Shown: positions 45,826 through 63,191 of the stretch, one piece after another | Position numbering within the stretch: position 1 is the stretch's first letter | Layout of the letters: every line of letters starts with the position of its first letter | NCBI GenBank assembly: GCA_041906885.1 | Contig: JAYRII010000014.1 | Span: forward strand, 10,059-74,058 | Reading direction: 5' to 3' | Length of the DNA: 64,000 bases | Source of the DNA: Candidatus Saccharimonadia bacterium | Lineage (GTDB): Bacteria > Patescibacteriota > Saccharimonadia > CAILAD01 > CAZGYV01 | The notes under the pieces: generated by a model | Told to the model about the DNA's origin: nothing | The model's input: only the letters and a program-made list of their open reading frames with translations | Databases searched by the model: none | Made by a program: the position numbers and the translations under genes

Positions 45826-46182
45826 CTAGAATCGGCCGATTACAAAGTTGACAATAGCATAAGACATGATTGCCACCACGATACCGATGACGGCGTAGAG
45901 AATGGTGTCCTTAGCTCCACTAATGGCTTTTTCATTACCTTGCGAGAAGACATAGCGGAAGCCACCGACAATCAGCATTAGTACCGCAGCCACACCAATG
46001 ACTAGTAAAAGAGTGTTGGTTATAGCCGTAATCTGAGATGGCAGGTCGCCATTTAGTCCGGCACTCTGGCCGGCATAGCCGGCACCTTGCTCTATTTCAC
46101 TGTTGGCGGCCAAAGCTCGCCCAGCTAACATCGGCAGCGTCACACCCGCCGACAAGCTTACTTTTTTTATTAATGAAACCAT
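45826..46182 (-). CDS. VirB2/TrbC-like pilin paralog 3
   Basis: Signal peptide plus core LPSQITAITNTLLLVIGVAAVLMLIVGGFRYVFSQGNEKAISGAKDTILYAVIGIVVAIMSYAIVNFVIGRF. Confidence 0.6.
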   Translation of the reverse strand: MVSLIKKVSLSAGVTLPMLAGRALAANSEIEQGAGYAGQSAGLNGDLPSQITAITNTLLLVIGVAAVLMLIVGGFRYVFSQGNEKAISGAKDTILYAVIGIVVAIMSYAIVNFVIGRF

Positions 46183-46492: not shown

Positions 46493-46795
46493 CTACTTGA
46501 TGTGTGTCAGCACGAAGTTGACAATGGCATAGGCTAGGATCGCCACCACTAGGCCGATGACAGCATACATGATGGTGTCTTTGGCGGTCTTGGTCCTGCC
46601 CGGATCGCCAGCTGAGGTGATATACTGCAGACCGCCGACGATCAATGCAATGACCGAGGCAACACCAACTATCCAGAAAAGAATGTTGGTGATCGAGTTG
46701 ATGATCGAGCCGACAGTGGAGGGTGTGCCGCTTAGCGCCGGTACGCCAATATCACCTTCACTGACGGCTAGAAATATTTTTGTAACTATATACAT
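46493..46795 (-). CDS. VirB2/TrbC-like pilin paralog 4 (divergent)
   Basis: ITNILFWIVGVASVIALIVGGLQYITSAGDPGRTKTAKDTIMYAVIGLVVAILAYAIVNFVL. Confidence 0.55.
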   Translation of the reverse strand: MYIVTKIFLAVSEGDIGVPALSGTPSTVGSIINSITNILFWIVGVASVIALIVGGLQYITSAGDPGRTKTAKDTIMYAVIGLVVAILAYAIVNFVLTHIK

Positions 46796-46802: not shown

Positions 46803-47708
46803 TTATTTTAAATTACCAATGATAAATTTGACAATTGCAATGGCCGATATGGAAATAATCAGCCCTAGTACGGCGTAGCTGATTGTGGCTTTAGCCTTCT
46901 GCAAATTAGTCTGATTGCCGCCCGAGGCGACGTAGCGCAACGCACCGACGATGATAAATACGACCGAGAGTGCGCCTCCAAGATATAAAACAAAGTTAGT
47001 TATGTTGAGGATTAAGCCTTGTATGCTATTTAATGTTTTTCCTGAATCAGGTACTGTAGCCCCAAAGAATTCATCCGGCTTGCCTCCTATACTAATCAAC
47101 ACCAACAATGCCCGCATACTTATCAAGACTACCAAGCTCATGACGGCATTAGTGATCCTGCCCTTGGCTGCCTTGACCGCATCCGGACTGCCCGCCGAGG
47201 TCACCATTTGCACTCCTCCAACTATTATCATCAGCACAATCACTGCGCCCGCCAAACCAACAATCCAGTTGGAAATGCCGACCACATAGCCCATCACTAC
47301 GTTGCTCTGGCTAGGGTCACAGAGCTTTTCAAAGCCATACCCACCTACACCGATCGATTTTTGACTATTATCACTAGGGTCTCGTTCGCCTGGGTCTACT
47401 CCTCCTTGACTAAAACTACCGCAGGTTATATTGTCTCTAGTACCAGCGCCCCCCTCTGTACCACCTTGCCCATTAGTGGAGGTGGGAACTACCCCATTTT
47501 CAAGAAGAGCTTTTTTTCTATCTTTAATGCAGTCATCTCTGTTTACACCCGAGGGAAATCCGTTACAAGCAGCCTCTGCTTGACTCTGGGCCTCTTGGTC
47601 AGATATTGCCAAGGCTCGCTGGGGTGTATAGATTGCTCCCATAACACCGAAGACAAGCACTATCCAAGCAAACACCACCAGGCCAACAATAAGGAGTAAT
47701 TTCTTCAT
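46803..47708 (-). CDS. secreted protein with Cys-containing ectodomain fused to two tandem VirB2-like pilin modules
   Basis: Signal/anchor MKKLLLIVGLVVFAWIVLVFG, four Cys, then module 1 (ISNWIVGLAGAVIVLMIIVGGVQMVTSAGSPDAVKAAKGRITNAVMSLVVLIS) and module 2 (ITNFVLYLGGALSVVFIIVGALRYVASGGNQTNLQKAKATISYAVLGLIISISAIAIVKFIIG). Confidence 0.5.
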   Translation of the reverse strand: MKKLLLIVGLVVFAWIVLVFGVMGAIYTPQRALAISDQEAQSQAEAACNGFPSGVNRDDCIKDRKKALLENGVVPTSTNGQGGTEGGAGTRDNITCGSFSQGGVDPGERDPSDNSQKSIGVGGYGFEKLCDPSQSNVVMGYVVGISNWIVGLAGAVIVLMIIVGGVQMVTSAGSPDAVKAAKGRITNAVMSLVVLISMRALLVLISIGGKPDEFFGATVPDSGKTLNSIQGLILNITNFVLYLGGALSVVFIIVGALRYVASGGNQTNLQKAKATISYAVLGLIISISAIAIVKFIIGNLK

Positions 47709-47891: not shown

Positions 47892-50399
47892 TTGAGTAAA
47901 ATGCTACTCAAAATCCTGAAACAAAAATTTTTAATTTCATTTCTCGTGCTATTAAGCCTCGTAGCCTGTAGTTTTATTTTTGCCCCAAAAGCTCTGGCTG
48001 CCAATCGACCAAGTGCATATAAGGCAGATGAACATGTTCGCTGTGCATGGATCAATGCTTGGTTTATACAATGTAGTGGCATTAATTACTTGTATGATGT
48101 TCAGGCTTCGAAAGAGTCAAATACAGATACATTTAGGCCTCAATCCGGTGATATAGCACGACATGGTTACGTACACATTACTCAATATCATGCAGAAGGC
48201 AAAGACGATTTTGTCATCAATACCGACAGGACAAGCCTTGTAGCACCCGGTAACCTCGATCCTAAAAATTTTGATTTCACAGGTAGCGATAAACGCAATA
48301 CTAACAACAAGGGTAATATTGACAGCGCGCAAGGTCCAATCTCATCAGAGGCTAAGAGCGGCAAAGATGAGGAAAGAAACAAGCTGTGTAGCATAATAAA
48401 CACAGCTGAAGGCTGTCTAAATGCATGGGATGGTCAACCCAACAATGGGTTAGATGGCTTTGTTTCTCTTTATGGACAAAGTCAATCCGCACTGGATGCA
48501 GAAAGAGACTGTGGGGATAATTCATCTCTTAATTTCATCACCTGCCCGATATTCAATATGGTCAATAAAACGATTGGCAAATTAATCGGTAGTGATGGTA
48601 GTGGCAAAGGCTTGCTAATAGATATGTTTTACGTCAGACCGCTTTCGTTTCAAAGAACAACAGACGCTAATGGTCAAGACTCCAACCCACTCTACTCTGT
48701 TTGGGATAATGTAAAGAATATAGCCCTGAGCGTATACGTCTTTATTTTCTTGATTGTTATATTTTCTAACTCTATGTCGCTTGGCATTGATGCCTACACC
48801 ATAAAGAAGACCTTACCTAGGCTTTTTGCAGCCGCGATTTTTACCCAATTCTCATTTTTATTTCTAAATATCGCTATAGATATGAGTAATGTTATTGGCA
48901 TTGGCTTGCCTAGTTTTGTGTTGGCTCAAGGCCCTAAAACATTCACCCTCAATATCTCTGGTATATGGGGAGGGGCAGCGAGTGTTGTATCGTTTTTACT
49001 AATTCTGATCCTTGCCATAATGGCTCTCTTTAGCCTGATAGTAGCTCTAATTACGATTGTCGCCAGACAGCTAATAGTTTTTGCGCTTGTTATTACGGCA
49101 CCGATTGCAATTGCCTGCTGGGTACTTCCAAATACTCAAAAGATTTTTAAAAAATGGTGGAATAATCTGTGGAGAATCTTAGCAATGTTCCCAATCGCGA
49201 CCGGCTTGATTGCGGTTGCTATTTTGTTCTCCCGAGTTACAGGCCACCAAACAGATGTCAATGGAAATCACATAAGCTCTTTGGCGCAGCTCGCTGGTGC
49301 TATGGCTCCCCTTATCGCCCTAGCTATCCTACCTAAAACTTTCAAATGGGGAGGAGATTTTGTCGCCGCAGCTACTGGTGCTGCAGCCGGCTGGGTTGCT
49401 CGTGGACAATCTGCCTCGTTTAAGAAGGGTAAGGACGTGGGCAAGGCTGGATTGGGTGGTGCTAGAGATAGAGTTGCCTTAAATGCTGGCAATAGCAGAT
49501 TCCTTCATGGTATATCGGGAGGAGGATGGAGGAATAGCTCTCGTAAGAATATGATCAGAAGAGGCCAAAACAAGGGACGTATACTTGGTGAGTACGAAAA
49601 AGCTGCCCAGTATGCTGAAAAAGACCAACTTCGTCAATTAGCTGGCAGTAAAAATAAAGGCATGCAGATGGCTGCGATTGGGCGCATGGCCAAGAAATCA
49701 GACTTAGAAGGACTTACCAGCGTTTTAGCGAGCGGCCAGGTTACTCGAGGGACATATAAGGCAGCAGTCGAACAATACCATGGTGATTTCGACAAGATGC
49801 CTCAGATGCGCTCAGTGGCTTTTGCAGATGAAAAAAGCAGCTCAAGTAGAGCAATCATGACTTCAGTACCCGATGGAAAAGGTGGCACTACTCAAAGACC
49901 AGCCATACAGACGAGCTTCTACGCTGGTATGTCTGGTGAGTCTCTTGCGGGTGCATCGACTGACTCTAAAAAACATATTATGGGTGCTGGGGAAGTATCA
50001 GGTTCAGCAGTAAATCAAATCTTGAGTACACCTGCCCTGGAAGCCAAGTTTAGCTCCGAAGATATAGCAACCTTAAGAGGTCTTGCTGGTGCGACTGGTA
50101 CGACACCATCTGGAACCGCCGGAGGGATGCCAGCACCAGCACCTGGCAGCAGTACACCACCAATCGTGGTTGCACCCACTCCAGCATCAGCTCCCCATGC
50201 ATCAACTTCAAGTACTGGCAGCTCTGAGGTTGTTGCCGAACTAAAACGAATTGGTAGTAAATTAGACGATATTGGCAGCACTCCGCCACCTACTCCTCCT
50301 TCATCACCAGAGCCTCACCGCCATGACCCTTCAAGCGGCACTGACTCCTCTCACCTACCTGGCTCAGATAGCCCGCCACCACCATGGCTCAGAGAATAG
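47892..50399 (+). CDS. VirB6/TrbL-like polytopic T4SS channel protein with large Cys-containing N-terminal ectodomain and Pro/Ser-rich C-terminal tail
   Basis: Signal peptide, ~250-aa ectodomain with multiple Cys, then 5-6 TM helices (ALSVYVFIFLIVIFS; LFAAAIFTQFSFLFLNIAI; SVVSFLLILILAIMALFSLIVALITIV; LIVFALVITAPIAIACWVL; ILAMFPIATGLIAVAILF). Position next to VirB3/VirB4 homologues. Confidence 0.5.
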   Translation: MSKMLLKILKQKFLISFLVLLSLVACSFIFAPKALAANRPSAYKADEHVRCAWINAWFIQCSGINYLYDVQASKESNTDTFRPQSGDIARHGYVHITQYHAEGKDDFVINTDRTSLVAPGNLDPKNFDFTGSDKRNTNNKGNIDSAQGPISSEAKSGKDEERNKLCSIINTAEGCLNAWDGQPNNGLDGFVSLYGQSQSALDAERDCGDNSSLNFITCPIFNMVNKTIGKLIGSDGSGKGLLIDMFYVRPLSFQRTTDANGQDSNPLYSVWDNVKNIALSVYVFIFLIVIFSNSMSLGIDAYTIKKTLPRLFAAAIFTQFSFLFLNIAIDMSNVIGIGLPSFVLAQGPKTFTLNISGIWGGAASVVSFLLILILAIMALFSLIVALITIVARQLIVFALVITAPIAIACWVLPNTQKIFKKWWNNLWRILAMFPIATGLIAVAILFSRVTGHQTDVNGNHISSLAQLAGAMAPLIALAILPKTFKWGGDFVAAATGAAAGWVARGQSASFKKGKDVGKAGLGGARDRVALNAGNSRFLHGISGGGWRNSSRKNMIRRGQNKGRILGEYEKAAQYAEKDQLRQLAGSKNKGMQMAAIGRMAKKSDLEGLTSVLASGQVTRGTYKAAVEQYHGDFDKMPQMRSVAFADEKSSSSRAIMTSVPDGKGGTTQRPAIQTSFYAGMSGESLAGASTDSKKHIMGAGEVSGSAVNQILSTPALEAKFSSEDIATLRGLAGATGTTPSGTAGGMPAPAPGSSTPPIVVAPTPASAPHASTSSTGSSEVVAELKRIGSKLDDIGSTPPPTPPSSPEPHRHDPSSGTDSSHLPGSDSPPPPWLRE

Positions 50400-50417: not shown

Positions 50418-51281
50418 ATGGGTCAATATAAAGTTCCACAAAATGTAGAGACAGAAGACAAAATCCTTGGTCCGTTTTCGATCAAGCAATTTGTCTATCT
50501 TGTGATCGCCCTGATGTGGGGCTTCCTCATGTGGCGCATCTTTGGCTTTTTCTTGCCGATCGCCATTCTGCTAATTCTGCCCGTCAGCGGCATCTTTATC
50601 GCTCTGGCAGTCGGCAAGCGCGAGGAGCAGAGCTTCGAAAATTACTTTATCGCTTTTGTCCGGTTTATGGTCTTGCCGCGCAAACGAATTTGGCAAAAAG
50701 ACGACACCAAGGATATTGTCAAAATTATCCCCAAGGCTCCACCCAAGCCCGAGGAGGCCAAGCCGCCCAATCCCGAAGAAGTCCGCGGGCAATTGCACAA
50801 GCTAGCTACGATCATTGATTCGCGCGGCCGTTTGCAAAAAAACGAAATGGTCCAAGTCCAAGATGTCGGCTACCAAAACGCTGAGCTGGCCAGCCGGGTG
50901 ATTGATCCTATGGCCGAGTCGCACGAAGTGATTAACCCGCAAGCTATCGCCATGAAAGACGATATGCTCGATACCCAAAACAGTGACAAAGCTGCTGCCG
51001 TCGGGCAGATGCTTGAAAATGTCGAGCACGACGTCCGCGCTCAAGCCGTCGAAAATATGAAAAAAGCCCAGTCTGCGCCGGCCAAGCCAAGCCATCATCA
51101 GGCAACACCACAAGAGCACCAGGCGGCCAAAAGTAAAGCACAAGCAGGATCGCCAAATCCGCAGGCTGCTGGTATAATTGAGTTAGCGATGCGCAAAGAG
51201 CCAGTTACGGTTGCCCAAATCGCAAATCGCGTCTCAAATGAAGTTACACTTTCGCCGGGCAAAACCGTCAAGTTGCGCTAG
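50418..51281 (+). CDS. PrgI/VirB3-like small membrane protein with extended C-terminal domain
   Basis: N-terminal KILGPFSIKQFVYLVIALMWGFLMWRIFGFFLPIAILLILPVSGIFIALAVGK (two TM hairpin) as in PrgI/VirB3, located immediately before the VirB4 homologue. Confidence 0.45.
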   Translation: MGQYKVPQNVETEDKILGPFSIKQFVYLVIALMWGFLMWRIFGFFLPIAILLILPVSGIFIALAVGKREEQSFENYFIAFVRFMVLPRKRIWQKDDTKDIVKIIPKAPPKPEEAKPPNPEEVRGQLHKLATIIDSRGRLQKNEMVQVQDVGYQNAELASRVIDPMAESHEVINPQAIAMKDDMLDTQNSDKAAAVGQMLENVEHDVRAQAVENMKKAQSAPAKPSHHQATPQEHQAAKSKAQAGSPNPQAAGIIELAMRKEPVTVAQIANRVSNEVTLSPGKTVKLR

Positions 51282-51342: not shown

Positions 51343-52356
51343 ATGCCTCCAAATCAAACAAACAATCCTTATCCAGCCGCACCACCAGCCCAAGGACCGC
51401 CACCAGGCGTACCAATGGGCCCGCCGCCACCGTATGGCCCAGTGCAATACCAGCCGCAGCAACCGCCAATGATGCCTCAGCAGCCAGTCCCGCCCGGCAA
51501 GGGCAAGGCGTCAGACAAAAAGGGCAAGAAGGGCGACAAAAACGAGCGCATCAGTACGCAAAAATATTTGATGTTCTCTGAGATCAAAGATGGCATTGTG
51601 GTGATGCGAGATGGCTCTCTGCGCATGATCATCCTAGGATCGGCCCTGAATTTTGACCTCAAAAGTCAGCAGGAACAAGACGCTATCGAGTTTTCATATC
51701 AGGGCTTCTTAAATGGTTTGCATTTCCCAATCCAGATCATTATCAGGTCGCGCAAGATAGACCTAGGCAGCTACATTGATAAGCTCGACAACATTAGGTC
51801 TAACCAACAAAACCCACTACTAGCGGGGCTGATGGAAGAATACACCGAAAACATCAAAGCCCTGCTTGATGAGATTAATATTATGGATAAAGAATTTTAC
51901 GTTGTCGTGCCCTACTATGTCGAAGCGGTCTCGAAGGACAATGTGACATCAAAAGTCGGCTCTATCTTTAAGCCGGCTGATGCTAATGTGGCTACTCAGA
52001 CCAATGAACAATTCGAAAAACGCAAACGCGACATATTGCAACGCACCAACAGCGTCGCTCAGGGGCTAGCTCAGTTGGGTATTCGAGCAGCCGTACTCAA
52101 GACACAAGAGCTAATCGAGCTATTTTATAATTCCTACAATATCGATGTCTCACAGAGCCAACGACTAATAAAAGTTGAGGATATGACAACTCCAGTAGTC
52201 GAGCGTGGCGGCCCGCCGGCCATGCAACATCAACCGCAGTCGCAACCAGCTCAGCCTGATGATCTCTTTGCCGCCGCTCATCGCCGCGAGCAATTGCAAT
52301 CGGACACTAGCTCGCAGGATGGCTACCCCGGTCAAACCGATGGAGGAGCCAGCTAG
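51343..52356 (+). CDS. VirB4-family ATPase, N-terminal part (Pro-rich leader plus VirB4 N-domain), ends at an in-frame TAG
   Basis: KYLMFSEIKDGIVVMRDGSLRMIILGSALNFDLKSQQEQDAIEFSYQGFLNGLHFPIQIII matches the conserved N-domain of TrbE/VirB4/PrgJ. The ORF stops at TAG 52354-52356, followed directly in the same frame by ATG. Confidence 0.55.
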   Translation: MPPNQTNNPYPAAPPAQGPPPGVPMGPPPPYGPVQYQPQQPPMMPQQPVPPGKGKASDKKGKKGDKNERISTQKYLMFSEIKDGIVVMRDGSLRMIILGSALNFDLKSQQEQDAIEFSYQGFLNGLHFPIQIIIRSRKIDLGSYIDKLDNIRSNQQNPLLAGLMEEYTENIKALLDEINIMDKEFYVVVPYYVEAVSKDNVTSKVGSIFKPADANVATQTNEQFEKRKRDILQRTNSVAQGLAQLGIRAAVLKTQELIELFYNSYNIDVSQSQRLIKVEDMTTPVVERGGPPAMQHQPQSQPAQPDDLFAAAHRREQLQSDTSSQDGYPGQTDGGAS

Positions 52357-54261
52357 ATGGCGAGACAAAAGCAACCCCAAATCGACCCGGCCATTCAAGC
52401 CCAGATTGACCGAGCAGCCGCCGAGCAAGCTGATGCCGAGCGTATTTACCGGGAAGGTATTGTCACCTTACGCGATGCTATTGCGCCTTCGTCGATTCAA
52501 ATCGAAAGCAATTACCTGCGTATCGGTAGCCGCTTAGCTCAAACTTTATTTGTCTTTGGCTATCCACGCACTTTATTTACTGGGTGGCTGTCGCCCATCA
52601 TCAATCTCGATGAGGTGATCGACATCAGCATCAATATCGTGCCGGTCGAGAGCAAGGTGGTGATGGATAATTTGAAGAAGAAAGTCGGTCAGCTCGAAGC
52701 CAGCTACAGCATCAACCAAGAAAAAGGCCGTGTTCGTGATCCTGGCCTCGAGGCCGCTATATCAGACGTTGAGGAGCTGCGTGATAAGCTCCAGGTCGGC
52801 AGTGAGCGTTTCTTCCGTTTTGGCCTCTATCTGACTCTTTACGGCAAAGACCAAAATGAACTCGAGCTGGTTCGTAAAAAAATTGAAGGAATTTTTGGTA
52901 ATAGCCTAATCTATACCAAGCTGGCAACGATTCAAATGGAGCAAGGCTTTAACTCCACTCTGCCACTTGGAACTGACATGCTCAATATCTATCGCAACAT
53001 GGATACCGGTGCGATTTCGACCAGCTTCCCATTCACCACAGCTGAGCTCTCCCAAGAAGAGGGGATTATGTACGGCATTAATCGCCACAACAACGGCTTG
53101 GTGCTCTATGATCGCTTTAGCCTCGAGAACGCTAATATGGTTGTATTTGCCAAGTCCGGAGCCGGTAAAAGCTTTGCTGTTAAGCTCGAGTGTCTGCGCT
53201 ATCTGATGCTCGATACAGAAGTGATCATTATTGATCCCGAAAATGAATATAAGACTCTGTGCGATGCTGTCGGTGGGTCATTCTTGCACCTTTCGCTCAA
53301 TAGTGCCACCCGCATCAATCCATTTGATCTGCCCAAAGCTGTCGATAAAGAAGAGGCCGACAATGCCTTAAATGCCAACATTATCATGTTGCACGGCCTG
53401 ATCAGACTGATGACGGGCGAGATGACGCCGGCCGAAGAGGCCGACTTGGATGTCGCCCTGATTCAAGCCTACGCCGACAAGGGTATCACTGGCGACCCGC
53501 TGACCCATAAGTCCGAGCCACCACTGATGAGCGATCTCTACAACACACTTATAAACATGGGCGGTAATGGGCCAGGCATGGCGGCACGATTGCGGCGCTA
53601 TACTGAGGGTACTTTTTCGGGTATATTCTCTGAGCAATCCAATATCCAGCTTGATAATAAATTCGTCGTTTTCAACATTCGTGATCTGGAAGATGAATTA
53701 CGACCAATTGGCATGTATATCGTGCTCAACTACATTTGGAATCGCGTCAAAATGGATAAGCGCCGTCGAATCTTAGCCGTCGACGAGGCCTGGCAGCTGA
53801 TGCGCTACCAAGACTCGGCGCAATTCCTTTTCTCAATCGCCAAACGCGCCCGTAAGTACTACCTTGGTCTGACCACCATCTCGCAAGACGTGGAGGACTT
53901 TTTGAGTACTAGGCTGGGACGGGCTATCGTAACCAACTCAAGCTTACAGCTGCTCCTCAAGCAGTCGCCGGCTGCCGTCGATGTCGTGGCTGACACCTTT
54001 AGGCTGACGGCCGAGGAGCGCAATCGACTGACCCAATTCCCGGTTGGCGAAGGGCTGTTTTTTGCCGGTTTGTCGCACGTCATACTGCACATATTAGCTT
54101 TTCCTGGCGAGGAGCAGCTGATCACCACAAATCCTCGAGATTTATTAGATCGCCCTACAGAAACCGATGTAGCGACCGAAGAGACGGAGGAGACAGCTGA
54201 GAACGGGCAGGGTGAGGCTATCATATCTGCCAATCCACCACCGTTTGAAAATCCACTCTAA
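52357..54261 (+). CDS. VirB4-family ATPase, C-terminal part (middle domain plus Walker A/B ATPase)
   Basis: GYPRTLFTGWLSPII...; Walker A VVFAKSGAGKSFAV; Walker B RILAVDEAWQLM; the 52357 ATG is in frame with the upstream ORF. Confidence 0.7.
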   Translation: MARQKQPQIDPAIQAQIDRAAAEQADAERIYREGIVTLRDAIAPSSIQIESNYLRIGSRLAQTLFVFGYPRTLFTGWLSPIINLDEVIDISINIVPVESKVVMDNLKKKVGQLEASYSINQEKGRVRDPGLEAAISDVEELRDKLQVGSERFFRFGLYLTLYGKDQNELELVRKKIEGIFGNSLIYTKLATIQMEQGFNSTLPLGTDMLNIYRNMDTGAISTSFPFTTAELSQEEGIMYGINRHNNGLVLYDRFSLENANMVVFAKSGAGKSFAVKLECLRYLMLDTEVIIIDPENEYKTLCDAVGGSFLHLSLNSATRINPFDLPKAVDKEEADNALNANIIMLHGLIRLMTGEMTPAEEADLDVALIQAYADKGITGDPLTHKSEPPLMSDLYNTLINMGGNGPGMAARLRRYTEGTFSGIFSEQSNIQLDNKFVVFNIRDLEDELRPIGMYIVLNYIWNRVKMDKRRRILAVDEAWQLMRYQDSAQFLFSIAKRARKYYLGLTTISQDVEDFLSTRLGRAIVTNSSLQLLLKQSPAAVDVVADTFRLTAEERNRLTQFPVGEGLFFAGLSHVILHILAFPGEEQLITTNPRDLLDRPTETDVATEETEETAENGQGEAIISANPPPFENPL

Positions 54262-54336: not shown

Positions 54337-57300
54337 ATGCCTCCTTCTGATGAAATGGAACAATATGACAACCCGATAGGTGACGCTGACGCCGGCTATG
54401 ACGCCGGACTGTCCGGTGATACCGGCTCAGAAAACGATGCGCCTGAAGTAAGTCCGTCGCGGAGCTCAAGCGGTCCCAAGCATGCAAAAAGCAAACAAGA
54501 CAATAAAGGCCTCAATAAAACCCAAAAAAGGCTCTCCGGTATCGAGAATAAGTTGGGGCAAAAAGGAGGCCTTGCAGGTAACCTCGGTAAGGCCGCCGGG
54601 GACCTCAATAAGTTTATTGACGGAAACAAGCCAAAACACCTCAAACAAGATGGCAGTAAAGCAGCTAGAAAAACGACCGAGAAAGCAGTCGATAAAGCAG
54701 CCGGGCAAGCCGCTAAAGCAGCGGTTGCTTCGTCTGGAATAGGAGCCCCTGTTGCCCAAGCAGTAGGCAAGGTCGTCGAAAAAGTCGGCGTCAAACGAAT
54801 TCTAATTATTATCGGGGTTCTTCTCTTGTGGCCTATTCTTTCGGTTATGCTAACCGTCATGATGTTGTATCAATTTATCAAAAACCCGATTAAGGCCATT
54901 TGGGACGGCAACCCAGTTGTATCAGCAGTTAAGTCCCTTGTACTCGAAGATCATGGTGAATCTAAAAAATTTGCCTACGAAATTGACCTCAAAGACTTTA
55001 AAGATTTTCCAGCCACCGGTGCTGTTGCCGCCCCGGCCGCTGATGCTCCAAAGGAAGGAACGCTGGAGTGGAAATATAGCCAGATTGATTGGGAAAAGGC
55101 CAAATACCAAACAATCGACCAGCCAAGCAACTGCAGAGTCGACACTAAACAGGTTGTTAATCCAATCACCGGCAAGCAGCGAGCCGTCATCGACAAGGTC
55201 TATATGGCCAACAACGCCGATAACTCCATGAGTGAAAACTCAAAAGCGATGTGCTTATCTAAGGTCTATCCAATCTTTAATACTATGATGCGCAGCAAAT
55301 TCTTGCGACAGGGAATCAATAAGGAAATTGGCCTGCGCTACAACTATGCCGAGCAGGATGAAAATGGTAATGCGCCGGATATATACGCCAGCCCATCGCC
55401 TTCAGCTAGCCCAGCTTCCGCACCGACAACTCAATCCAAGTGGGGCGTCGGCCTAGCCTACCTCAAGCAAATGTTCGTCGATGATTTTATTCGTGGCCTA
55501 AAACAAAACATTACTGCCGTCGCTGTTCCAGCCACCAGTCCAGCAGCAACGACCGACCCCTACGAACAGCTCAAAGAAAAATTACGCAACAAAACCCTTG
55601 ACCGTATCTGGATGCGTGACACTGGTCAAGCCAATCAGCCGTCCGGTGATGTCTCACTTGATGGTGTTAGTGTGCCCCCTGGATTAGCTAATTTTCCTGA
55701 AGGTGCCGCCTTATTTAAAAAAATATTTGCCTGGGTAAGTGCTAAAACCGGTGTGCCAACTGCCATGCTAGCCTCACAAGCCTACCAGGAGTCATCAAAC
55801 TATTGGGTAGGGCAATATCAAGACGATAATTATGTCTTACAGCACTCTTATATGATCCCAGGCGCTGGTAAACAACCCATGGATAAGGCAAAGGGTGATA
55901 CTGGCTGTACAGCAGGCTGCCAAGGGCCGATGCAGCTTGATAAATATCCTGGTGGAGGAAATTATAACGCCAAGCTGCTGGCCGCCTTCAAACAGACCTT
56001 TGGGGTAGACTATCCGGAGCATGGCGAGATGATGTTTGACACGGCAGTCGGTTATGCCGCCACCATGGCTCAATCAAGAGCTAAAACCCTGAACGATCCA
56101 GCAGCCACCAATGCCTACTACCAGGATAAGGGTCATCGACTTGATTACCTCAAATGGTATGGTACTAACGCAGGCGGTGACAAGCATTATGATGAATTTA
56201 ATAGTGGATCAACCAGCATGAAAGACACAATTCAAAATAATAGAACTGTTGCAGCCAACTTTGCCGTTCGTACGCCGTCTACACTACCACCATCGGCTAT
56301 TCTAGCTTTAGCAACACGGATTCCTGGGGCAACCCCACCTGGAGCTGGTGCTGCTCAAGAAGTTATCGATAGGACTACCTATGCAGGTCTAAAGACTGGC
56401 TACGATTTCGCTAAGGCAGTATATGCTAAGCTTGACTTTAATTGGTGTCAGGGGGTAGCTACCAACACCTGCTCAAAAGGCATGATGAACTACTACTTTG
56501 CCAGCAAAGCTGTGATTGACCGTTACGAGTCAAAATACGCCGATAAATTTCCTGGAGGTTCTTCCACAAAGGCACAATATTACAATGCTATGAGCGCTTG
56601 GCAAAAAACCTCTTCAGTCGAACCGGGTGGTAGTTTTACTGCTTGTGGCGATAATTGCACTACACTGCCAGTGCGAAAAGCAGTCGTTGATGCGGCGGGT
56701 GCATATGCTGAAGAGCTACTCAGAATGGAAGCCGCACGACTCGGTATTTCTAGTGGGGGTGGCGGTGGAGGAGGAGGTGACAGCGGAGCATCAACTCCGA
56801 CAACTCCCGAGAAGCCCAAAGACCCGCTCACGAAGATGGTCGCCCTACCCAAGACTTGCGATAAAGACTTTGCAAATAAGAACGCCGGCCTCAAGTCGTC
56901 AGCCCCGATAGACTACTCGGTCGTCAAAGTTGTAAATGACTTGCTCTGTGGCGACGACCCACAAAATATCAAGCTCGATGATGATATAGCCAGACAGATA
57001 AGGAAAGTGGGCGAGAATGGCAGCTCAAAAGACATGGCCGATGTGATCTGTCGATACTCGCTATACTTGGTCGAATCAGCCAAAGCAACGCCGCTAGACC
57101 GCCTAAAACTAACTCAAAAAACCCGTATCGCCTCAATGGCCAATGCTGGTTTCTCGCATGTCACCTACGCCGACACCCAGGTATCGCGACCACTACTACT
57201 GGATGAGATGAGAGCTGACTTTTATAAAATGAGCAATTTCGCTGGGGCCGTTACCTATCATCATACAGCCTACGGCACCGAAAATGGCACCGCCCCGCAG

Positions 57301-59094
57301 GCCGAAACCCTCTCCGGTAGCTCTCTGGGTATGGATATGCTTGGCGTGCACCCTGAGTACCCAATCCAAAAAGCAGTCCGGCAGCTAGCCGGCAACTGTA
57401 GTGATTACCTGGGCAACAACAGTGTGGTCGATAAAAATGGCAAGGCAACCGACCCCAAGAAAGACGAGTCTTCAACCAAGATCGGTCAGGTTGGTGCGTT
57501 CTACCCTCAGCTCCGCGATCAGATGCAAGCCCTGCCTTATTATAATTCGAAGGAATTTCGCGATGAAAAAACTGCCTTTGTTAATGGCACTGCCGCTGAG
57601 AATGGCACTGCCAAAATAGGCGATGCAATCAGTAGTGCAACCAAGAGCGCAGTTGATCAAAGCGGGGTAGGCCTCGATGATGTGCTGCTTGGATTCGCCA
57701 AAGCTGGCACTAATGTGAGTGACGCCGGCACCGAAGATGGGCCGCAAAACTTCAATCGTATGCATGACGGAGTGCAAGCCTATATGTACGCCTATAACCT
57801 GGCCATGGGTGGCAACCTAATCTCTCAAGATCGCGCTGTAGCCGAAGACATCAAGATCGAGGAAGGTGTGCGTGATCAAGAAAAGCGTCGCGGCCTGGCC
57901 TACCGCTTGTTTAATACCGAAAATCCGCGCTCGCTCGTCAGCCACCTTGGTGCAGCTTCGATTGCTAGTCCGCTGCAGGCTGCTAAGAACGTTGCTTCTG
58001 TCTTTGGTGATTTATTTAGCCCGCTGCAGAATATCGGCTCAGCTAGTGGCTCTCTGAGTTATTTCCTTACCGGTAACAACAATAGCGCCATGGCCGACAA
58101 CAGCTTTAGCTACAACTATCTGAAACTTGAGCCATCGACGATACCAGATTCAATCATATCCTCAAGCCCGATTGAGAATGGTAAATATATCGAACACCTC
58201 AAAGAAAGTACCGACGGTGATAAGCATGTCAAAATTAATGTTTTCTATGTTCCATACGGCGCAGAAAAGGCCGTTGATCCGAATAAGGGTGATCATACGA
58301 TCAAAGAATGGTTTGGTGTTTGGGATAAATGCTTTACAACTTTCATTCCTGGTGAACTGGCCCTAGACGACGATACCGTCCGCGAATGCCAGCCCATCTT
58401 TGGGGTTAATGCTGATCTTGATACTTCCGAGGGAGGCAAATTAGCCCTAGCCTACAAAACATATCACTACAATAGCCTAGTGGCCGACGCCATGCTCTAC
58501 CTGTCTGACCCCAGCAAGGTCGATGAAAGTCTATTTGCCAGCAGCGACCAGGCCACTGGCCCCGGTGCAGGCAGTGCTAATCCTGGAGGCATCGTCGGCG
58601 ATGTTTATGAAACTTCAGTTGATATCGCTTGTGCTGCAGGTACAAAAGATGTTGGCATTGCCGATGGTTACCACGGCGGTGTGCTTATAAAAATTCGCTT
58701 GTGTGCTATACCGAACTTCCCAAGCGGTAGTAGTGAGAGTCAACCAGGAGACAAATATTATGTAGAAGGGGCCGATGGTAATGCCCTAGTCAATTCACGT
58801 GTTTCGGGGGCGATGCTATCTTTGGTTAATGATGCTGCAAGCTCTGGTAATCCACTCTCAGCAGATAGCTCATTCCGCACTATGGAACACCAGAAGTCCC
58901 TTTATAGTGCGCCTCACTCAGCCCCCGTAGCCACGCCGGGTAACTCCAATCATCAGATGGGTCTGGCCATAGATTTCGCTAATTGCAAAACTCACAGCAC
59001 AGCATGCTTTAAATGGCTGGACGCAAATGCGGCCAAATATGGTTACCAGAATTTCCCCGTTGAGCCTTGGCATTGGTCGCCAAATGGACATTAG
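54337..59094 (+). CDS. giant (1585 aa) T4SS-associated cell-wall hydrolase (PrgK/VirB1-like): cytoplasmic disordered N-terminus, one TM, SLT lytic-transglycosylase domain and C-terminal M15 (VanY-like) peptidase domain
   Basis: TM ILIIIGVLLLWPILSVMLTVMMLY; SLT signature AYQESSNYW...GCQGPMQL; C-terminal SFRTMEHQKSLYS...SNHQMGLAIDF...EPWHWSPNGH (M15 HxxxxxxD and EPWH zinc motifs); Gly10 linker. Confidence 0.6.
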   Translation: MPPSDEMEQYDNPIGDADAGYDAGLSGDTGSENDAPEVSPSRSSSGPKHAKSKQDNKGLNKTQKRLSGIENKLGQKGGLAGNLGKAAGDLNKFIDGNKPKHLKQDGSKAARKTTEKAVDKAAGQAAKAAVASSGIGAPVAQAVGKVVEKVGVKRILIIIGVLLLWPILSVMLTVMMLYQFIKNPIKAIWDGNPVVSAVKSLVLEDHGESKKFAYEIDLKDFKDFPATGAVAAPAADAPKEGTLEWKYSQIDWEKAKYQTIDQPSNCRVDTKQVVNPITGKQRAVIDKVYMANNADNSMSENSKAMCLSKVYPIFNTMMRSKFLRQGINKEIGLRYNYAEQDENGNAPDIYASPSPSASPASAPTTQSKWGVGLAYLKQMFVDDFIRGLKQNITAVAVPATSPAATTDPYEQLKEKLRNKTLDRIWMRDTGQANQPSGDVSLDGVSVPPGLANFPEGAALFKKIFAWVSAKTGVPTAMLASQAYQESSNYWVGQYQDDNYVLQHSYMIPGAGKQPMDKAKGDTGCTAGCQGPMQLDKYPGGGNYNAKLLAAFKQTFGVDYPEHGEMMFDTAVGYAATMAQSRAKTLNDPAATNAYYQDKGHRLDYLKWYGTNAGGDKHYDEFNSGSTSMKDTIQNNRTVAANFAVRTPSTLPPSAILALATRIPGATPPGAGAAQEVIDRTTYAGLKTGYDFAKAVYAKLDFNWCQGVATNTCSKGMMNYYFASKAVIDRYESKYADKFPGGSSTKAQYYNAMSAWQKTSSVEPGGSFTACGDNCTTLPVRKAVVDAAGAYAEELLRMEAARLGISSGGGGGGGGDSGASTPTTPEKPKDPLTKMVALPKTCDKDFANKNAGLKSSAPIDYSVVKVVNDLLCGDDPQNIKLDDDIARQIRKVGENGSSKDMADVICRYSLYLVESAKATPLDRLKLTQKTRIASMANAGFSHVTYADTQVSRPLLLDEMRADFYKMSNFAGAVTYHHTAYGTENGTAPQAETLSGSSLGMDMLGVHPEYPIQKAVRQLAGNCSDYLGNNSVVDKNGKATDPKKDESSTKIGQVGAFYPQLRDQMQALPYYNSKEFRDEKTAFVNGTAAENGTAKIGDAISSATKSAVDQSGVGLDDVLLGFAKAGTNVSDAGTEDGPQNFNRMHDGVQAYMYAYNLAMGGNLISQDRAVAEDIKIEEGVRDQEKRRGLAYRLFNTENPRSLVSHLGAASIASPLQAAKNVASVFGDLFSPLQNIGSASGSLSYFLTGNNNSAMADNSFSYNYLKLEPSTIPDSIISSSPIENGKYIEHLKESTDGDKHVKINVFYVPYGAEKAVDPNKGDHTIKEWFGVWDKCFTTFIPGELALDDDTVRECQPIFGVNADLDTSEGGKLALAYKTYHYNSLVADAMLYLSDPSKVDESLFASSDQATGPGAGSANPGGIVGDVYETSVDIACAAGTKDVGIADGYHGGVLIKIRLCAIPNFPSGSSESQPGDKYYVEGADGNALVNSRVSGAMLSLVNDAASSGNPLSADSSFRTMEHQKSLYSAPHSAPVATPGNSNHQMGLAIDFANCKTHSTACFKWLDANAAKYGYQNFPVEPWHWSPNGH

Positions 59095-60394
59095 TATGAT
59101 CAAGAATATTTCACTTATAAAACATTATCCCAGAAGCGCAAAGACTGCCGGGCGAATACTTGCAATAACTCTGCTAATTTTAAATGCCTTGGGCATACCT
59201 AACGCTTCAGTGGCTGTGGCAGCCGATGCCCAAAAGAAATCCGAGTATAGGCCCGGGGTATCTGAACAGCGACGGGAGATCGAATTTCATTGGGCATACG
59301 ACAAAACAGCAGCCTGTGTGGCTAATGCCGCCAGTAGTCAAGCTAATTCTGGTCTTAGTGGTAATGGGTCCCTTCCTGATAGCGTGCCGGGGCCATACCA
59401 TGACATTTTCATTGCCGCTGCTGCCAAACACAATGCCCCTCCTGCTATCGTAGCTGCAATCTTTTTTGCCGGAGAGCACGGCCATAGTTGGCCAGACCCT
59501 CCACCACCTTACGGAGGCGGTAAGTCGTGGGAGACTTCTTACGCTAATGCTCAGGGCCCATTTCAATTTCTACCAGGTACATGGGGTGAATACGGTGATG
59601 ATGGAAACGGTGATGGCAAAAAGGACATTCAAGACCTGACAGATGCTGCCTTTGGGGCCGCTAATTACTTAGCAGCCAACGGAGCTGTTATTGGAGCCCC
59701 AGACGGGCCCCGTGGCACACCATCGATTGAAAATGCAATTTGGCTTTACAACCACAGCCAAAAGTATCTTGATACTGTTATGCAAGCTTATCACGAGTTT
59801 TCGGGTGCTGGAACCGGCATAAGTACCGTCGGGTCTGCCGTTTCACAAGCTGCCCAACAAGTGGGTGTGTGTTCAAGTGGCTCAGCAGATGGTGATGCGC
59901 AATTTATAGACTACACAGGCAAACTAACCGACCCATCAATCAATTCAACTTTACAGCCAACTGCCATTATCCTGCACTGGTGGGGTTTTAAGGGTGGCAT
60001 TGATAGCTTAGTCAGCGGGCTAAACTCTAGGGGGCTTTCCGTACAAATAGGTGCCACACTAGATGGTAAGTTATATCAGCTAACTCCCCAACTCAACAGC
60101 TATGCTCAACACGCTAAGTGTGTCAATAAATATGCTATTGGTATTGAAATAGAGGGCGAGGGGCCGGCCGATCTTGCTGGCTCACAACCCCAGTTTAACT
60201 CCGTGGTTAGCGCGGTTAAAACCCTAATGCAAAAATTTTCAATACCTGTTGATGGCGTTATACAAAATCCTTCCTCTAGTGGCGTAGTGGGAGTCCATTC
60301 TCACAAAGAAGTTGATGCGCTTTGTCCAACAGGTTCGGGCAAGGATGATGTTGATGATACCTACCTGCAAAGAGTAAAAGATGCTGTAAAATAG
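59084..60394 (+). CDS. secreted cell-wall hydrolase: SLT-like lytic transglycosylase plus amidase_2 (N-acetylmuramoyl-L-alanine amidase/PGRP-like) domain
   Basis: Signal peptide; GPFQFLPGTWGEYG (SLT G-x-M/F-Q motif); C-terminal IILHWWGF...HSHKEVDALCPTG amidase_2-like. The start overlaps the preceding gene stop by 11 nt. Confidence 0.55.
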   Translation: MDISMIKNISLIKHYPRSAKTAGRILAITLLILNALGIPNASVAVAADAQKKSEYRPGVSEQRREIEFHWAYDKTAACVANAASSQANSGLSGNGSLPDSVPGPYHDIFIAAAAKHNAPPAIVAAIFFAGEHGHSWPDPPPPYGGGKSWETSYANAQGPFQFLPGTWGEYGDDGNGDGKKDIQDLTDAAFGAANYLAANGAVIGAPDGPRGTPSIENAIWLYNHSQKYLDTVMQAYHEFSGAGTGISTVGSAVSQAAQQVGVCSSGSADGDAQFIDYTGKLTDPSINSTLQPTAIILHWWGFKGGIDSLVSGLNSRGLSVQIGATLDGKLYQLTPQLNSYAQHAKCVNKYAIGIEIEGEGPADLAGSQPQFNSVVSAVKTLMQKFSIPVDGVIQNPSSSGVVGVHSHKEVDALCPTGSGKDDVDDTYLQRVKDAVK

Positions 60395-60405: not shown

Positions 60406-61809
60406 ATGCAACCAGATATATATAACCAGCCAAATAAAGTAATTAATAAAAAAGTACTCTTAATAGTATTTGCTATATTCTTAGTAATTTGTATAATATT
60501 GGCCTTGTTTTTGTTATCCAAACACAGCAATGAAAAAGTTAACCCCACCCCAATTAATTATCAGGATAATTTTTTTACTGGAATCAGTTCGGTGTCGCCA
60601 GACATTAATAATCCAGAAGTTATTCATCTCTTTAACGGCCGCAATTTCATTAAATATAATTTAAAGACCAAACAATCCAGCCGCCGAATCAAAGACGTTA
60701 ATCTTCCCAACAGTGTTTCTGAAATGAAATGGTCTAAAGACAAGAACTATGTAAGCTTTAAGGCTAGTGGTTTTACTACCAATGATGAGCTCGGAAAATA
60801 TTTAAATAACATGGGCTTATCTCTAAATAACCATTATTTTTGGGTAATGAATACAAACACCGGTGAATTTAACTTGATTTCAGGTTCTTACACACTTGAA
60901 GAGGACTCTCTAAAAGAAACCCTATTCACGACGTGGGGAGTAGACCCAAATAAAATAATATTTGTTACTAAAGTAGGGGATACGAGCGAGATATACCTAT
61001 ATGATGTTATCAAAAAAGAAACTAAATTATTGTTTAAGAATAGTAATTTAGTCCTCTATCTATCTCAACTCAATCCTAACAAATATATTATTCTTGAAAG
61101 TAAACAAGATGGCTCTATCTTGGAAGTTAACGATATAGATAGTACTGGAAAAAGTAAATTAATTACTAAAGTCAACTCGAATATAATAAACACTTCGCCA
61201 GACGGAAAATATTTTTACATTTTTGAACCAAGCAATGCATCTAAAATAAGTGATGGCGAGAATACCGAACCAATTAGCGGCAAATTAAATATTTACAATT
61301 CAGACAACAATAAGATTGTTAAAGATATTAATAATTTAAAAACTTCAGACTTTTTTAGTTGGTCTGGGAATAGCAAGTCAATCTATACTTTTACCAACAG
61401 CTCTAAGTTAAGCATCGTTAATGTTGATAACAGCAGTTCTACAATATTTAAGCCGCTTGATAAGATCAATCTTCGCAATAGTGGAGCTTATCAGTTTATT
61501 GCATCGGGAATCGAGGGCTTGGTATTTATTGTTAATAAAGATGGGGTTAATACCATTCAAACACCAGACATACAAAGGCCATACACAGTGAATCTTAACA
61601 CCATTCAAACACCCGATAACTTCACTGATTTCAATGTGTCTTACGATGATAAATATAAACTAACGACTGTCAGCTTATACAAGCAGCCTTACGATTTATT
61701 TCGACAAAAAGCTATTGAATATGTAGGTAACAAGGGTGTTAATCCAGATCTCATTCCAATAAACTTTATTAACTTCAATCCGGCAAACAACAATTATCAC
61801 GGTCGCTAG
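60406..61809 (+). CDS. AT-rich, Asn/Lys-rich membrane-anchored protein with PD40/TolB-like beta-propeller-type repeats; hypothetical
   Basis: N-terminal TM; repeats of the SPDGKYFYIF / SWSGNSKSIYTF type; markedly lower GC than neighbours. Confidence 0.4.
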   Translation: MQPDIYNQPNKVINKKVLLIVFAIFLVICIILALFLLSKHSNEKVNPTPINYQDNFFTGISSVSPDINNPEVIHLFNGRNFIKYNLKTKQSSRRIKDVNLPNSVSEMKWSKDKNYVSFKASGFTTNDELGKYLNNMGLSLNNHYFWVMNTNTGEFNLISGSYTLEEDSLKETLFTTWGVDPNKIIFVTKVGDTSEIYLYDVIKKETKLLFKNSNLVLYLSQLNPNKYIILESKQDGSILEVNDIDSTGKSKLITKVNSNIINTSPDGKYFYIFEPSNASKISDGENTEPISGKLNIYNSDNNKIVKDINNLKTSDFFSWSGNSKSIYTFTNSSKLSIVNVDNSSSTIFKPLDKINLRNSGAYQFIASGIEGLVFIVNKDGVNTIQTPDIQRPYTVNLNTIQTPDNFTDFNVSYDDKYKLTTVSLYKQPYDLFRQKAIEYVGNKGVNPDLIPINFINFNPANNNYHGR

Positions 61810-61822: not shown

Positions 61823-62098
61823 CTATCTAATTGTCACCACAATACGGCTCACTTTGTGTGGCGCAATTTTCCCATTTATTAACACCATCAGACTCCGTGC
61901 TCGGTAACGCAGCTCTGAGGCGCTTGAACTATCCTCCGTGGCTATTTTGAGGACGTTATTTTTATAGCTCAACACCCTAACCTCTACATGGACCTTGTCG
62001 ACAATTATTAACTTTGCCTCGGTCATAACATCTAGTTTTGAAACACCGAGTGTTTCGGCTTTTTCTTCTAGGATTTTTTTAATATTCTCAAGCGACAT
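61823..62098 (-). CDS. DUF721-like small protein (recF-downstream ORF)
   Basis: 91 aa, overlaps the recF start by 11 nt; conserved position in the dnaN-recF-(DUF721)-gyrB cluster. Confidence 0.45.
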   Translation of the reverse strand: MSLENIKKILEEKAETLGVSKLDVMTEAKLIIVDKVHVEVRVLSYKNNVLKIATEDSSSASELRYRARSLMVLINGKIAPHKVSRIVVTIR

Positions 62099-63161: not shown

Positions 63162-63191
63162 ACTAATTAATTATACCTATAAATATAATTA

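Follow-up and report, generated by a model that had tools for sequence, protein, structure and literature searches.

The genes studied here lie in a 64-kb stretch of DNA from a Saccharibacterium (64,000 nucleotides, referred to in full as the window) and form part of a T4SS cluster with the following features.

45826-46182, 46493-46795 and 46803-47708, minus strand: three VirB2-like T4SS pilin genes (Pfam PF18895, E 3e-9, 6.8e-15 and 3.5e-20)
47892-50399, plus strand: VirB6/TrbL-like membrane protein of 835 aa, encoded first in the operon (PF19590 TrbL_3, precomputed on the genes of loci L074 and L001)
50418-51281, plus strand: PrgI-family (VirB3-like) protein, 287 aa (Pfam PF12666 PrgI, E 1e-13)
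51343-52356, plus strand: ORF1, TrsD-like/'TraC-like' protein, 337 aa (homologues, NCBIfam profiles, hhalign, AF2 with Foldseek)
52342-52348, plus strand: Shine-Dalgarno-like GGAGGAG within the end of ORF1, 8-10 nt 5' of the ORF2 ATG (direct reading)
52354-52359, plus strand: junction, the TAG stop of ORF1 followed immediately by the ATG of ORF2 (sequence and independent assemblies)
52357-54261, plus strand: ORF2, VirB4-like ATPase, 634 aa (conju_CD1110, PDB 4ag5, Walker motifs)
54337-59094, plus strand: large 1585-aa protein carrying a VanY-type peptidase domain at its C-terminus (Pfam VanY, E 3e-13, residues 1484-1581)
59027-60394, plus strand: VirB1-like cell-wall hydrolase, 455 aa (Pfam SLT_2, E 7.5e-10; Amidase_2, E 1.5e-9)
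62088-63884, minus strand: recF and dnaN (Pfam SMC_N/RecF and DNA_pol3_beta domains)

The pilin genes are transcribed divergently from the T4SS operon. A Pfam scan of the VirB6/TrbL-like protein itself returned no match, and its assignment comes from the L074 and L001 genes, which are identical or orthologous to it. A PrgI-family gene is likewise found upstream in orthologous loci, and the large VanY-type protein is conserved 3' of virB4 in close relatives (L001, L003). Because recF and dnaN adjoin the cluster, we place it on the chromosome near the replication origin, in agreement with the location near dnaN described for Patescibacteria (PMC12102498). We read the system as a chromosomal, monoderm-type (MPF_FATA-like) T4SS.

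The initial annotation of this DNA had singled out two ORFs in one frame, separated by a sole TAG, as a VirB4 ATPase interrupted by a stop codon. The sequence, the ORF listing and the translation all confirm the arrangement: ORF1 terminates with TAG at 52354-52356, ORF2 opens in the same frame with ATG at 52357-52359, the letters read ...GGAGGAGCCAGC TAG ATG GCG AGA..., and translation of 51343-54261 as one frame encounters a single internal stop. A scan for promoters and terminators found no plus-strand terminator between the two ORFs and was otherwise uninformative. An error of sequencing or assembly in one record could in general produce such a TAG, with nothing beyond that in its favor. 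We regard its probability as practically negligible, since six contigs, each assembled independently from a separate sequencing run and matching the window at 100% identity across 3-4 kb, carry the identical TAG-ATG junction.

ORF1 consists of a folded core (approximately residues 70-275) flanked on both sides by Pro/Gln-rich disordered tails. A total of 1037 homologues were found, and the best 120 of these are all 246-392 aa long. PF26593 ('TraC-like') is precomputed on 116 of these best 120 and on P0001, a protein 100% identical to ORF1 (E <= 1e-5); our Pfam scan of ORF1 gave no match, and the PF26593 model was possibly missing from the Pfam set scanned. For profile comparisons, we used a shallow ORF1-family alignment (A1), a diverse ORF1-family profile (A2) and a family sample of 130 diverse members. 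The NCBIfam TrsD profile (NF041427) was matched by 129 of the 130 members at E<0.01, and the VirB4 profiles VirB4_plasma, conju_CD1110 and TIGR00929 by 125, 100 and 43 of the 130, respectively, with the family matches falling at N-terminal positions of the VirB4 profiles. ORF1 itself aligns with positions 90-233 of VirB4_plasma (E 1e-5). Against NF041427 it scores 18.1 bits (E 0.0018), short of the curated cut-off of 200 bits, and even the best E-value among the 130 members (8.5e-13) corresponds to a score far under that cut-off; ORF1 is therefore a remote TrsD homologue that lies outside the NCBIfam subfamily as curated. Direct comparison with TrsD of Staphylococcus hominis plasmid pSh8213-1 supported the relationship, both by hhalign with A2 (Prob 93.1%, E 3.2e-7, 176 columns, TrsD residues 30-216 of 227) and by hmmsearch with the A2 profile (E 1.9e-7). 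The link required A2; with A1, hhalign against the single TrsD sequence stayed below significance (Prob 2.5%).

Structure prediction points in the same direction. Modeling of ORF1 from 17 close orthologues gave no usable result (pLDDT 47), and the AF2 model built with the 130 diverse representatives reached a pLDDT of 79.6 overall and >90 in the core. In a Foldseek search of the PDB with this model, chains of TrwK/VirB4 occupied ranks 1-14 (E 8.9e-5 to 6.5e-3, prob 1.00, ~190 columns); E was already 0.05 for the match after these, leaving TrwK/VirB4 of R388 as the sole significant fold match. Among PDB entries, VirB4 was recovered for ORF1 by fold comparison only, as searches of PDB sequences by phmmer or by hmmsearch with A1 returned nothing meaningful. 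The placement of ORF1 at the VirB4 N-terminus rests on the sequence profiles, the Foldseek output being without matched TrwK residues. Taken together, ORF1 corresponds to the opening ~170-190 residues of VirB4 in its full-length form, encoded as a protein of its own.

ORF2 is a shortened VirB4. It matches conju_CD1110 (NF045971) with 367.4 bits (E 1.5e-109), above the curated cut-off of 325 bits, and covers positions 174-732 of the 752 in that profile, so that the N-terminal ~170 positions are missing. In its translation, Walker A (KSGAGKS) and Walker B (LAVDEAW) are intact. The VirB4 C-terminal domain of PDB 4ag5 matches ORF2 residues 231-590 (E 3.5e-51), approximately the extent of the ATPase domain proper, and residues 106-203 give weak Pfam matches to TraC_F_IV and CagE_TrbE_VirB. 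ORF2 hence comprises the second half of the VirB4 N-terminal domain together with the ATPase domain. The assignment of ORF1 to the N-domain and of ORF2 to the ATPase domain in the initial annotation holds in part: profiles and fold bear out the homology of ORF1 to the N-terminal part of VirB4, but ORF2 also carries the second half of the N-domain, and the break lies inside that domain, not between it and the ATPase domain.

On full-length VirB4 profiles, the ORF1 family and ORF2 occupy positions 1-158 and 174-732 of conju_CD1110, 6-188 and 255-729 of TIGR00929, and 95-284 and 280-876 of VirB4_plasma. By profile alignment, the two sets of coordinates are complementary, and together they run colinear over the full profile. 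A natural single-ORF TrsD-VirB4 fusion of 898 aa, P0228, was found in uncultured material (L069-L071). Its residues 13-240 are 35% identical to ORF1 and its residues 322-890 are 52% identical to ORF2, in colinear order; the two parts are joined by a Pro/Ala-rich linker of ~80 residues, and a PrgI-like gene lies upstream. The protein occurs on 5 contigs, and the three places examined represent three sequencing runs. Fusions of this type are rare, P0228 being the one case among the best 150 cluster representatives, yet the existence of P0228 indicates that a single-chain version is viable.

Comparison of orthologous loci, one of several checks put forward in the initial annotation, settled how this junction should be read. 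We surveyed 57 species-level related loci, each carrying both an ORF1-type gene and virB4. The counterparts of ORF1 and ORF2 are separate ORFs with the same boundary in 57/57, and in 53 of them the two genes are in different frames (offset 2 in 42, 1 in 11 and 0 in 4). The intergenic distance is -1 (TAATG) in 38 loci, 0 in 3, +1 in 8 and another value in 8, and the ORF1-type gene stops at TAA in 50, TAG in 6 and TGA in 1. In 45/57 loci, a GGAG-type motif is found <=18 nt from the ORF2 start; the GGAGG ribosome-binding site and an ORF2 product beginning "MA..." are both conserved. Orthologues from Saccharibacteria genomes are 53-81% identical, and in the closest relatives (81% and 72-79% identity), TAATG stands where the window has TAG-ATG. 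With all 57 loci split at the same boundary and 53 out of frame, the ancestor already possessed two genes. Of the four options initially considered, a genuine two-polypeptide VirB4 is the one that these data uphold.

The survey also bears on the proposal that a recent nonsense mutation, as in early pseudogenization, broke a once-continuous VirB4 gene of ~970 aa in the window strain. The shared frame with a single stop codon in between would fit such an event, as would the continuous homologue P0228. The uniform split across the 57 loci contradicts it, however, as does the TAATG at the same position in the closest relatives; moreover, an ATG with a Shine-Dalgarno motif stands exactly at the conserved ORF2 start, and neither the core of ORF1 nor the ATPase motifs of ORF2 show damage, both being conserved. 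We consider this scenario extremely unlikely.

The in-frame TAG had been presented as the notable feature of the locus. Adjacent genes that are densely packed are expected to share a frame in 1 of 3 cases. Given this expectation and the 4/57 orthologous loci in frame, frame sharing between ORF1 and ORF2 does not exceed chance. The VirB6-like and PrgI-like genes of the same operon are likewise in frame across a TAG. Thus, the common frame is a coincidence without functional meaning.

Readthrough or recoding of the TAG (by a suppressor tRNA, pyrrolysine or a code in which TAG is sense), giving a functional or additional VirB4 of ~971 aa, would draw on the continuous frame with its open extension of 634 codons past the stop, on the viable single chain of P0228, and on three other loci in which a stop directly precedes an in-frame start (TAA-ATG in L030 and L043, TAG-TTG in L038). 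Nevertheless, TAG is the commonest stop in the window (17/37 long ORFs), and the other TAG-ended window genes meet their next stop 0-67 codons past the TAG, with one chance exception. None of the 5 tRNAs of the 64-kb window has a CUA anticodon; across this 64 kb of genome, neither TAG depletion nor a suppressor tRNA was seen. In addition, ORF2 is served by its own conserved Shine-Dalgarno motif and start codon. Orthologues end mostly in TAA and lie out of frame, which argues that a fused product is not required for function. From the sequence, readthrough is unnecessary and we judge it highly unlikely, although the window strain may show it at a low level.

A further alternative is that ORF1 encodes an independent accessory protein whose likeness to the VirB4 N-terminus is merely ancestral and implies no functional tie. 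TrsD-like paralogues do exist apart from virB4 (L060, L062 and L064), and L065 shows a divergent orientation; since some paralogues are not next to virB4, roles independent of VirB4 may exist in the family as well. Against this stand the tight adjacency or overlap with virB4 in 57 loci from three phyla, the absence from ORF2 of exactly what ORF1 supplies, and the colinearity of the natural fusion. An independent role strikes us as very unlikely. The trsD-VirB4 order extends to a Staphylococcus pGO1-type plasmid, to Sulfobacillus and other Bacillota, and to an Embleya (Actinomycetota) replicon.

The arrangement corresponds to published systems. In Microb Genom, Quiñonero-Coronel et al. (2025; PMC12102498) reported 2,272 TrsD homologues in Patescibacteria, of which 1,664 adjoin VirB4, and described TrsD as remotely homologous to the VirB4 N-terminus; the TrsD homologue adjacent to virB4 in the cultivated Saccharibacterium Ca. 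Southlakia epibionticum ML1 is, according to the same paper, listed as essential in a Tn-seq study. The remote homology is cited here through PMC12102498, the term TrsD being absent from the searched main text of Guglielmini 2014 (PMC4027160). The window cluster shares with the Patescibacteria T4SS of PMC12102498 the VirB2-like pilins, the VirB6-like, PrgI/VirB3-like and TrsD-like proteins, VirB4 and cell-wall hydrolases, as well as the order of the TrsD-like and VirB4 genes and the chromosomal site near dnaN. Nothing of substance sets the two apart: the genes of the window strain happen to be in frame (TAG-ATG, not TAATG), and the Pro-rich N-terminal tail of ORF1 is longer than in many orthologues.

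The TrsD/TraD and TrsE/TraE (VirB4) pairs of pGO1/pSK41 and pIP501 similarly place a small cytoplasmic protein directly upstream of a shortened VirB4. On pSh8213-1, trsD (2198-2881, 227 aa) is followed after a 20-nt gap by VirB4 (2902-4914, 670 aa). Homology between pGO1-type TrsD and the ORF1 family is at profile level, over nearly the whole TrsD length and with ~18% identity, and TrsD is without the long disordered tails of ORF1. A relaxase accompanies the conjugative system of these plasmids but is missing from most Patescibacteria clusters (PMC12102498). Compared with single-chain VirB4 proteins (R388 TrwK, PDB 7o41/8rtb; the CD1110 family; a Mycoplasma ICE), ORF1 and ORF2 cover the full profile. 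The ORF1 model shares part of the TrwK fold and the C-terminal domain of ORF2 matches both 4ag5 and TrwK, but the window protein is in two pieces, with a low-complexity tail in place of the connecting segment. P0228 is colinear with the window pair and likewise has a PrgI-like gene upstream; the difference is that P0228 is one ORF with a linker and the window has two ORFs.

VirB3-VirB4 fusions occur in some conjugative systems. They likewise show that domain boundaries around VirB4 are fluid, with fusion and fission among neighbors of the T4SS inner-membrane complex; they differ in running in the opposite direction and involving another partner, PrgI being a separate gene in the window. No VirB3-VirB4 fusion was found in Patescibacteria (PMC12102498).

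Based on these findings, we consider it very likely that ORF1 and ORF2 represent two genuine genes, each translated separately, encoding the TrsD-like protein and the short VirB4 of a Saccharibacterium T4SS. ORF2 begins where the homology of ORF1 to VirB4 stops and would be translated from its own ATG, with the GGAGGAG inside the end of ORF1 as its putative ribosome-binding site. As read from the sequence, this motif would support translational coupling or re-initiation of ORF2, and translation is probably coupled to the termination of ORF1. The shared frame in the window strain very probably arose when the usual TAATG overlap changed slightly to TAG-ATG. Homology and synteny, together with the rare fusion, suggest that the two products join non-covalently to form the equivalent of a VirB4 protomer. 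In VirB4, the N-terminal domains hold dimers together, are embedded in the membrane and make contact with VirB3 and VirB8 (PMC12857230). We propose that the TrsD-like piece would stand in for the N-terminal-domain segment by which R388 TrwK links its protomers, is anchored in the membrane and touches VirB3 and VirB8; the VirB3-like PrgI protein is encoded directly upstream of ORF1.

More speculatively, the detached N-terminal half of VirB4 could be exploited functionally, the free TrsD-like subunit being an adaptor that is separately dosed or exchangeable. Such a subunit would set the docking of the VirB4 hexamer on PrgI/VirB3 and the membrane, for example with the essential Saccharibacteria T4SS being switched between assembly of the pilus and the transfer or import of substrates. 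Paralogues unlinked to virB4 (L060, L062 and L064) would then be alternative adaptors, and the in-frame TAG-ATG might also permit a trace of fused protein in the window strain. We regard this extension as unlikely.

Thus, the "split VirB4" represents the usual two-gene arrangement of the Saccharibacteria T4SS, already known from published work. The junction is a routine operon junction, for which a flag as pseudogene, error or recoding is unwarranted, and annotation pipelines and scanners should expect the VirB4 of Patescibacteria and of pGO1-type systems as a TrsD-like protein plus a short VirB4. The complementary coordinates, the TrwK fold and the natural colinear fusion make the correspondence between TrsD and VirB4 sharper here than 'remote homology', and provide a testable hypothesis for TrsD function, namely that TrsD would be the missing half of the VirB4 N-terminal domain.

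The TrsD-like ("TraC-like") gene ORF1 and the VirB4-like ATPase gene ORF2 abut in the same reading frame, with the following features at their junction.

51343-52356, + strand: ORF1, TrsD-like gene, 337 aa
52342-52348, + strand: GGAGGAG, 8-10 nt 5' of the ORF2 ATG
52354-52356, + strand: TAG, stop codon of ORF1
52357-52359, + strand: ATG, start codon of ORF2
52357-54261, + strand: ORF2, VirB4-like ATPase gene, 634 aa

The initial annotation had described an in-frame TAG followed directly by ATG, and this is correct as written: the window sequence reads ...GAT GGA GGA GCC AGC TAG ATG GCG AGA CAA..., the ORF list agrees, and 51343-54261, translated in a single frame, comprises 973 codons, of which one is an internal stop. 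Judged by its sequence, GGAGGAG looks like a ribosome-binding site (RBS) for ORF2, and a terminator scan found no + strand terminator between the two ORFs. The shared frame is accidental, with a one-in-three chance at such a compact junction; the closest relatives have TAATG at this point. At the other end of ORF1, the gene callers of public assemblies place the start of the identical gene 24 codons downstream (protein P0001, 313 aa). We favor the start at 51343, since P0002 and P0005, the closest orthologues, also retain the MPPNQ... N-terminus. The N-terminal ~65 residues (51343-51520) form a Pro/Gln/Gly-rich low-complexity tail.

ORF2 is a VirB4-type ATPase. It matched the NCBIfam model conju_CD1110 with 367 bits (cut-off 325), limited to profile positions 174-732 of 752, and its residues 231-590 matched the crystal structure of the VirB4 C-terminal domain (4ag5, E 3.5e-51) as well as R388 TrwK. 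In the translation, both Walker motifs, A (KSGAGKS) and B (LAVDEAW), are intact. Weak TraC_F_IV and CagE_TrbE_VirB matches at residues 106-203 show that the N-terminal domain of VirB4 is also represented in ORF2, by its distal part.

The split is not peculiar to this window. Three orthologue contigs share a cluster of VirB6/TrbL-like, PrgI, TraC-like, VirB4 and large VanY or M23 proteins, with junctions TAATG, TAA-A-ATG and TAATG, each preceded by GGAG(G), and with ORF2 starting MAR... or MAF.... Moreover, 62 loci were recovered when each GTDB species was scanned in one genome, and 57 of them carry both genes adjacent on the same strand; ORF1 and ORF2 are separate ORFs in 57/57, a set that takes in Bacillota (Sulfobacillus) at 27-28% identity.

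ORF1/ORF2 junctions in the 57 loci with an adjacent same-strand pair
Gap -1 (TAATG overlap): 38/57
Gap 0 (stop abutting start): 3/57
Gap +1: 8/57
Other gaps: 8/57
Frame offset 2: 42/57
Frame offset 1: 11/57
Frame offset 0 (in frame): 4/57
ORF1 stop TAA: 50/57
ORF1 stop TAG: 6/57
ORF1 stop TGA: 1/57
GGAG-type motif 5' of the ORF2 start: 45/57

The initial annotation described a VirB4 ATPase split by a single TAG, and itself named orthologues encoding two separate proteins with this boundary as the finding that would count against this; it is what the loci contain. ORF1 and ORF2 are thus two genes with a conserved boundary, ORF2 having its own RBS and start codon.

Within the limits set by 64 kb, sequencing error and code reassignment are excluded. 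The exact TAG-ATG junction is present in six contigs, each assembled from a different sequencing run and 100% identical to the window over 3-4 kb. Reassignment of TAG in the genetic code conflicts with its use as the stop of 17 long ORFs out of 37 across the window (TAA 14, TGA 6), and no CUA anticodon occurs among the five tRNAs there (four Ser, one Arg). When other TAG stops are read through, the next stop follows within 0-67 codons, the VirB6-like/PrgI-like pair being the sole exception. Trace readthrough of the junction TAG may occur, but nothing requires it.

In that pair, the VirB6-like (47892-50399) and PrgI-like (50418-51281) genes also share one frame, with a TAG and 18 nt between them, and readthrough would add 293 codons, up to the PrgI stop. 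This second in-frame neighbour in the operon looks like chance, because the orthologous pair in locus L005 is out of frame. The four tRNA-Ser genes, among five tRNA genes in 17179-40569, have anticodons GGA, GCT, TGA and CGA; three of them are grouped with tRNA-Arg (GCG) between 35.2 and 40.6 kb.

ORF1 alone had no match in a local Pfam copy, and matched weakly the NCBIfam models for Mycoplasma ICE VirB4 (N-terminal positions 90-233 of 894, E 1e-5) and TrsD/TraD (E 0.0018). Among the 1037 homologues returned by a search with ORF1, every one of the 120 best is a free-standing protein (246-392 aa) encoded in Saccharibacteria or Patescibacteria, and 116 of these have the precomputed Pfam PF26593 "TraC-like" assignment. 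In an alignment of 130 diverse family representatives, 129 members matched TrsD (best E 8.5e-13), 125 VirB4_plasma, 100 conju_CD1110 and 43 TIGR00929 VirB4_CagE. Matches to the VirB4 models always fell on N-terminal profile positions, exactly those absent from ORF2, showing the two products to be complementary, in sequence homology, to one VirB4.

Profile positions matched by the ORF1 family and by ORF2
conju_CD1110 (752 positions): ORF1 family 1-158; ORF2 174-732
TIGR00929 VirB4_CagE (792 positions): ORF1 family 6-188; ORF2 255-729
VirB4_plasma (894 positions): ORF1 family 95-284; ORF2 280-876

In hhalign, the diverse alignment matched the protein annotated as TrsD on Staphylococcus hominis plasmid pSh8213-1 (Prob 93%, E 3e-7, 176 columns), where trsD (227 aa) lies 20 nt upstream of a 670-aa VirB4. 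An AlphaFold model of ORF1 from the same alignment (mean pLDDT 79.6) has a core at residues ~70-275 above 90 and two disordered tails. In a Foldseek search of the PDB, ranks 1-14 were R388 TrwK/VirB4 (E 8.9e-5 to 6.5e-3, probability 1.00, ~190 columns), the first match after this set being at E 0.05; the predicted ORF1 core is thereby shown to have the VirB4 fold.

The two parts also occur in one chain. An ORF1-orthologue profile matched 2982 of 1.84 billion cluster representatives at E <= 1e-3; among the best 150, 149 are 166-478 aa long, and P0228 (898 aa, uncultured lineage) is the only fused form, a colinear TrsD-like/VirB4 protein. Its residues 13-240 align with ORF1 71-301 (35% identity) and 322-890 with ORF2 30-597 (52%), connected by a ~80-residue Pro/Ala-rich linker. 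P0228 occurs on 5 contigs, the three places displayed (L069:4001-6697, L070, L071) coming from three sequencing runs, and a short PrgI-like gene (139 aa) upstream overlaps its start; it is therefore a real, rare single-chain form. Saccharibacteria/Patescibacteria genomes also contain divergent TrsD-like paralogues, with 34-42% identity to ORF1, that have no VirB4 gene downstream (L060:3992-4696, L062:3950-4654, L064:686-1321, L065:4106-4729); the VirB4 gene of L065 lies upstream on the opposite strand. Thus, a TrsD-like protein can be encoded apart from VirB4.

Based on these findings, we propose that the ORF1 product would dock non-covalently on the ORF2 product, rebuilding a complete VirB4 protomer. 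In R388, the membrane-embedded VirB4 N-terminal domains link both protomers of each dimer and also make contact with VirB3 and VirB8 (PMC12857230); the detached ORF1 piece is therefore a likely contact for the PrgI/VirB3-like protein encoded directly upstream. The overlapping or abutting stop and start, with a Shine-Dalgarno motif inside ORF1, suggest translational coupling, which would favor near-equimolar synthesis. The variable, disordered ORF1 C-terminal tail contains a conserved motif, (E)PDDLF(S/A)AA (52255-52270, residues ~305-311, columns ~330-340 of an alignment of close orthologues), in which P305 and D307 do not vary among 17 orthologues. This element, possibly a short linear motif for docking, is missing from the P0228 linker.

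The top ORF2 match in a plasmid collection (39% identity, E 8e-106) comes from the Streptomycetaceae species Embleya sp. NBC_00888 (Actinomycetota), where it falls in unannotated sequence (NZ_CP108785.1, 5526142-5535887) on a 5.7-Mb linear replicon. There, a TrsD-like ORF immediately precedes the VirB4 gene, in a different frame. Actinomycetes are hosts of Saccharibacteria. Downstream in our window, a 1585-aa ORF (54337-59094) has a VanY-type peptidase domain confined to its extreme C-terminus, with no family matches elsewhere, and overlaps by 68 nt the 5' end of the gene that follows (59027-60394; SLT + amidase_2, VirB1-like); a 467-aa ORF at 60406-61809 had no family match at all.

Quiñonero-Coronel et al. 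(2025, PMC12102498) retrieved TrsD more abundantly than any other type IV secretion component in Patescibacteria (2,272 homologues, 1,664 VirB4-associated); according to them, it is remotely homologous to the VirB4 N-terminus and occurs elsewhere only in MPF_FATA systems of the pGO1 subclass. As relayed there from Wang et al. (2023), Ca. Southlakia epibionticum ML1 has a VirB4-adjoining TrsD homologue listed as essential. Patescibacteria clusters are often near the replication origin (PMC12102498), and our window likewise ends with recF and dnaN. The gene arrangement has thus been described: this is an ordinary TrsD-like gene followed by virB4, in the same frame by happenstance in this strain. 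Our additions are modest, namely the exact profile-coordinate complementarity, the match of the TrsD-like core to the TrwK fold and a fusion that is natural but rare; jointly, these points support a view of TrsD as the first half of the VirB4 N-terminal domain, detached from the remainder.
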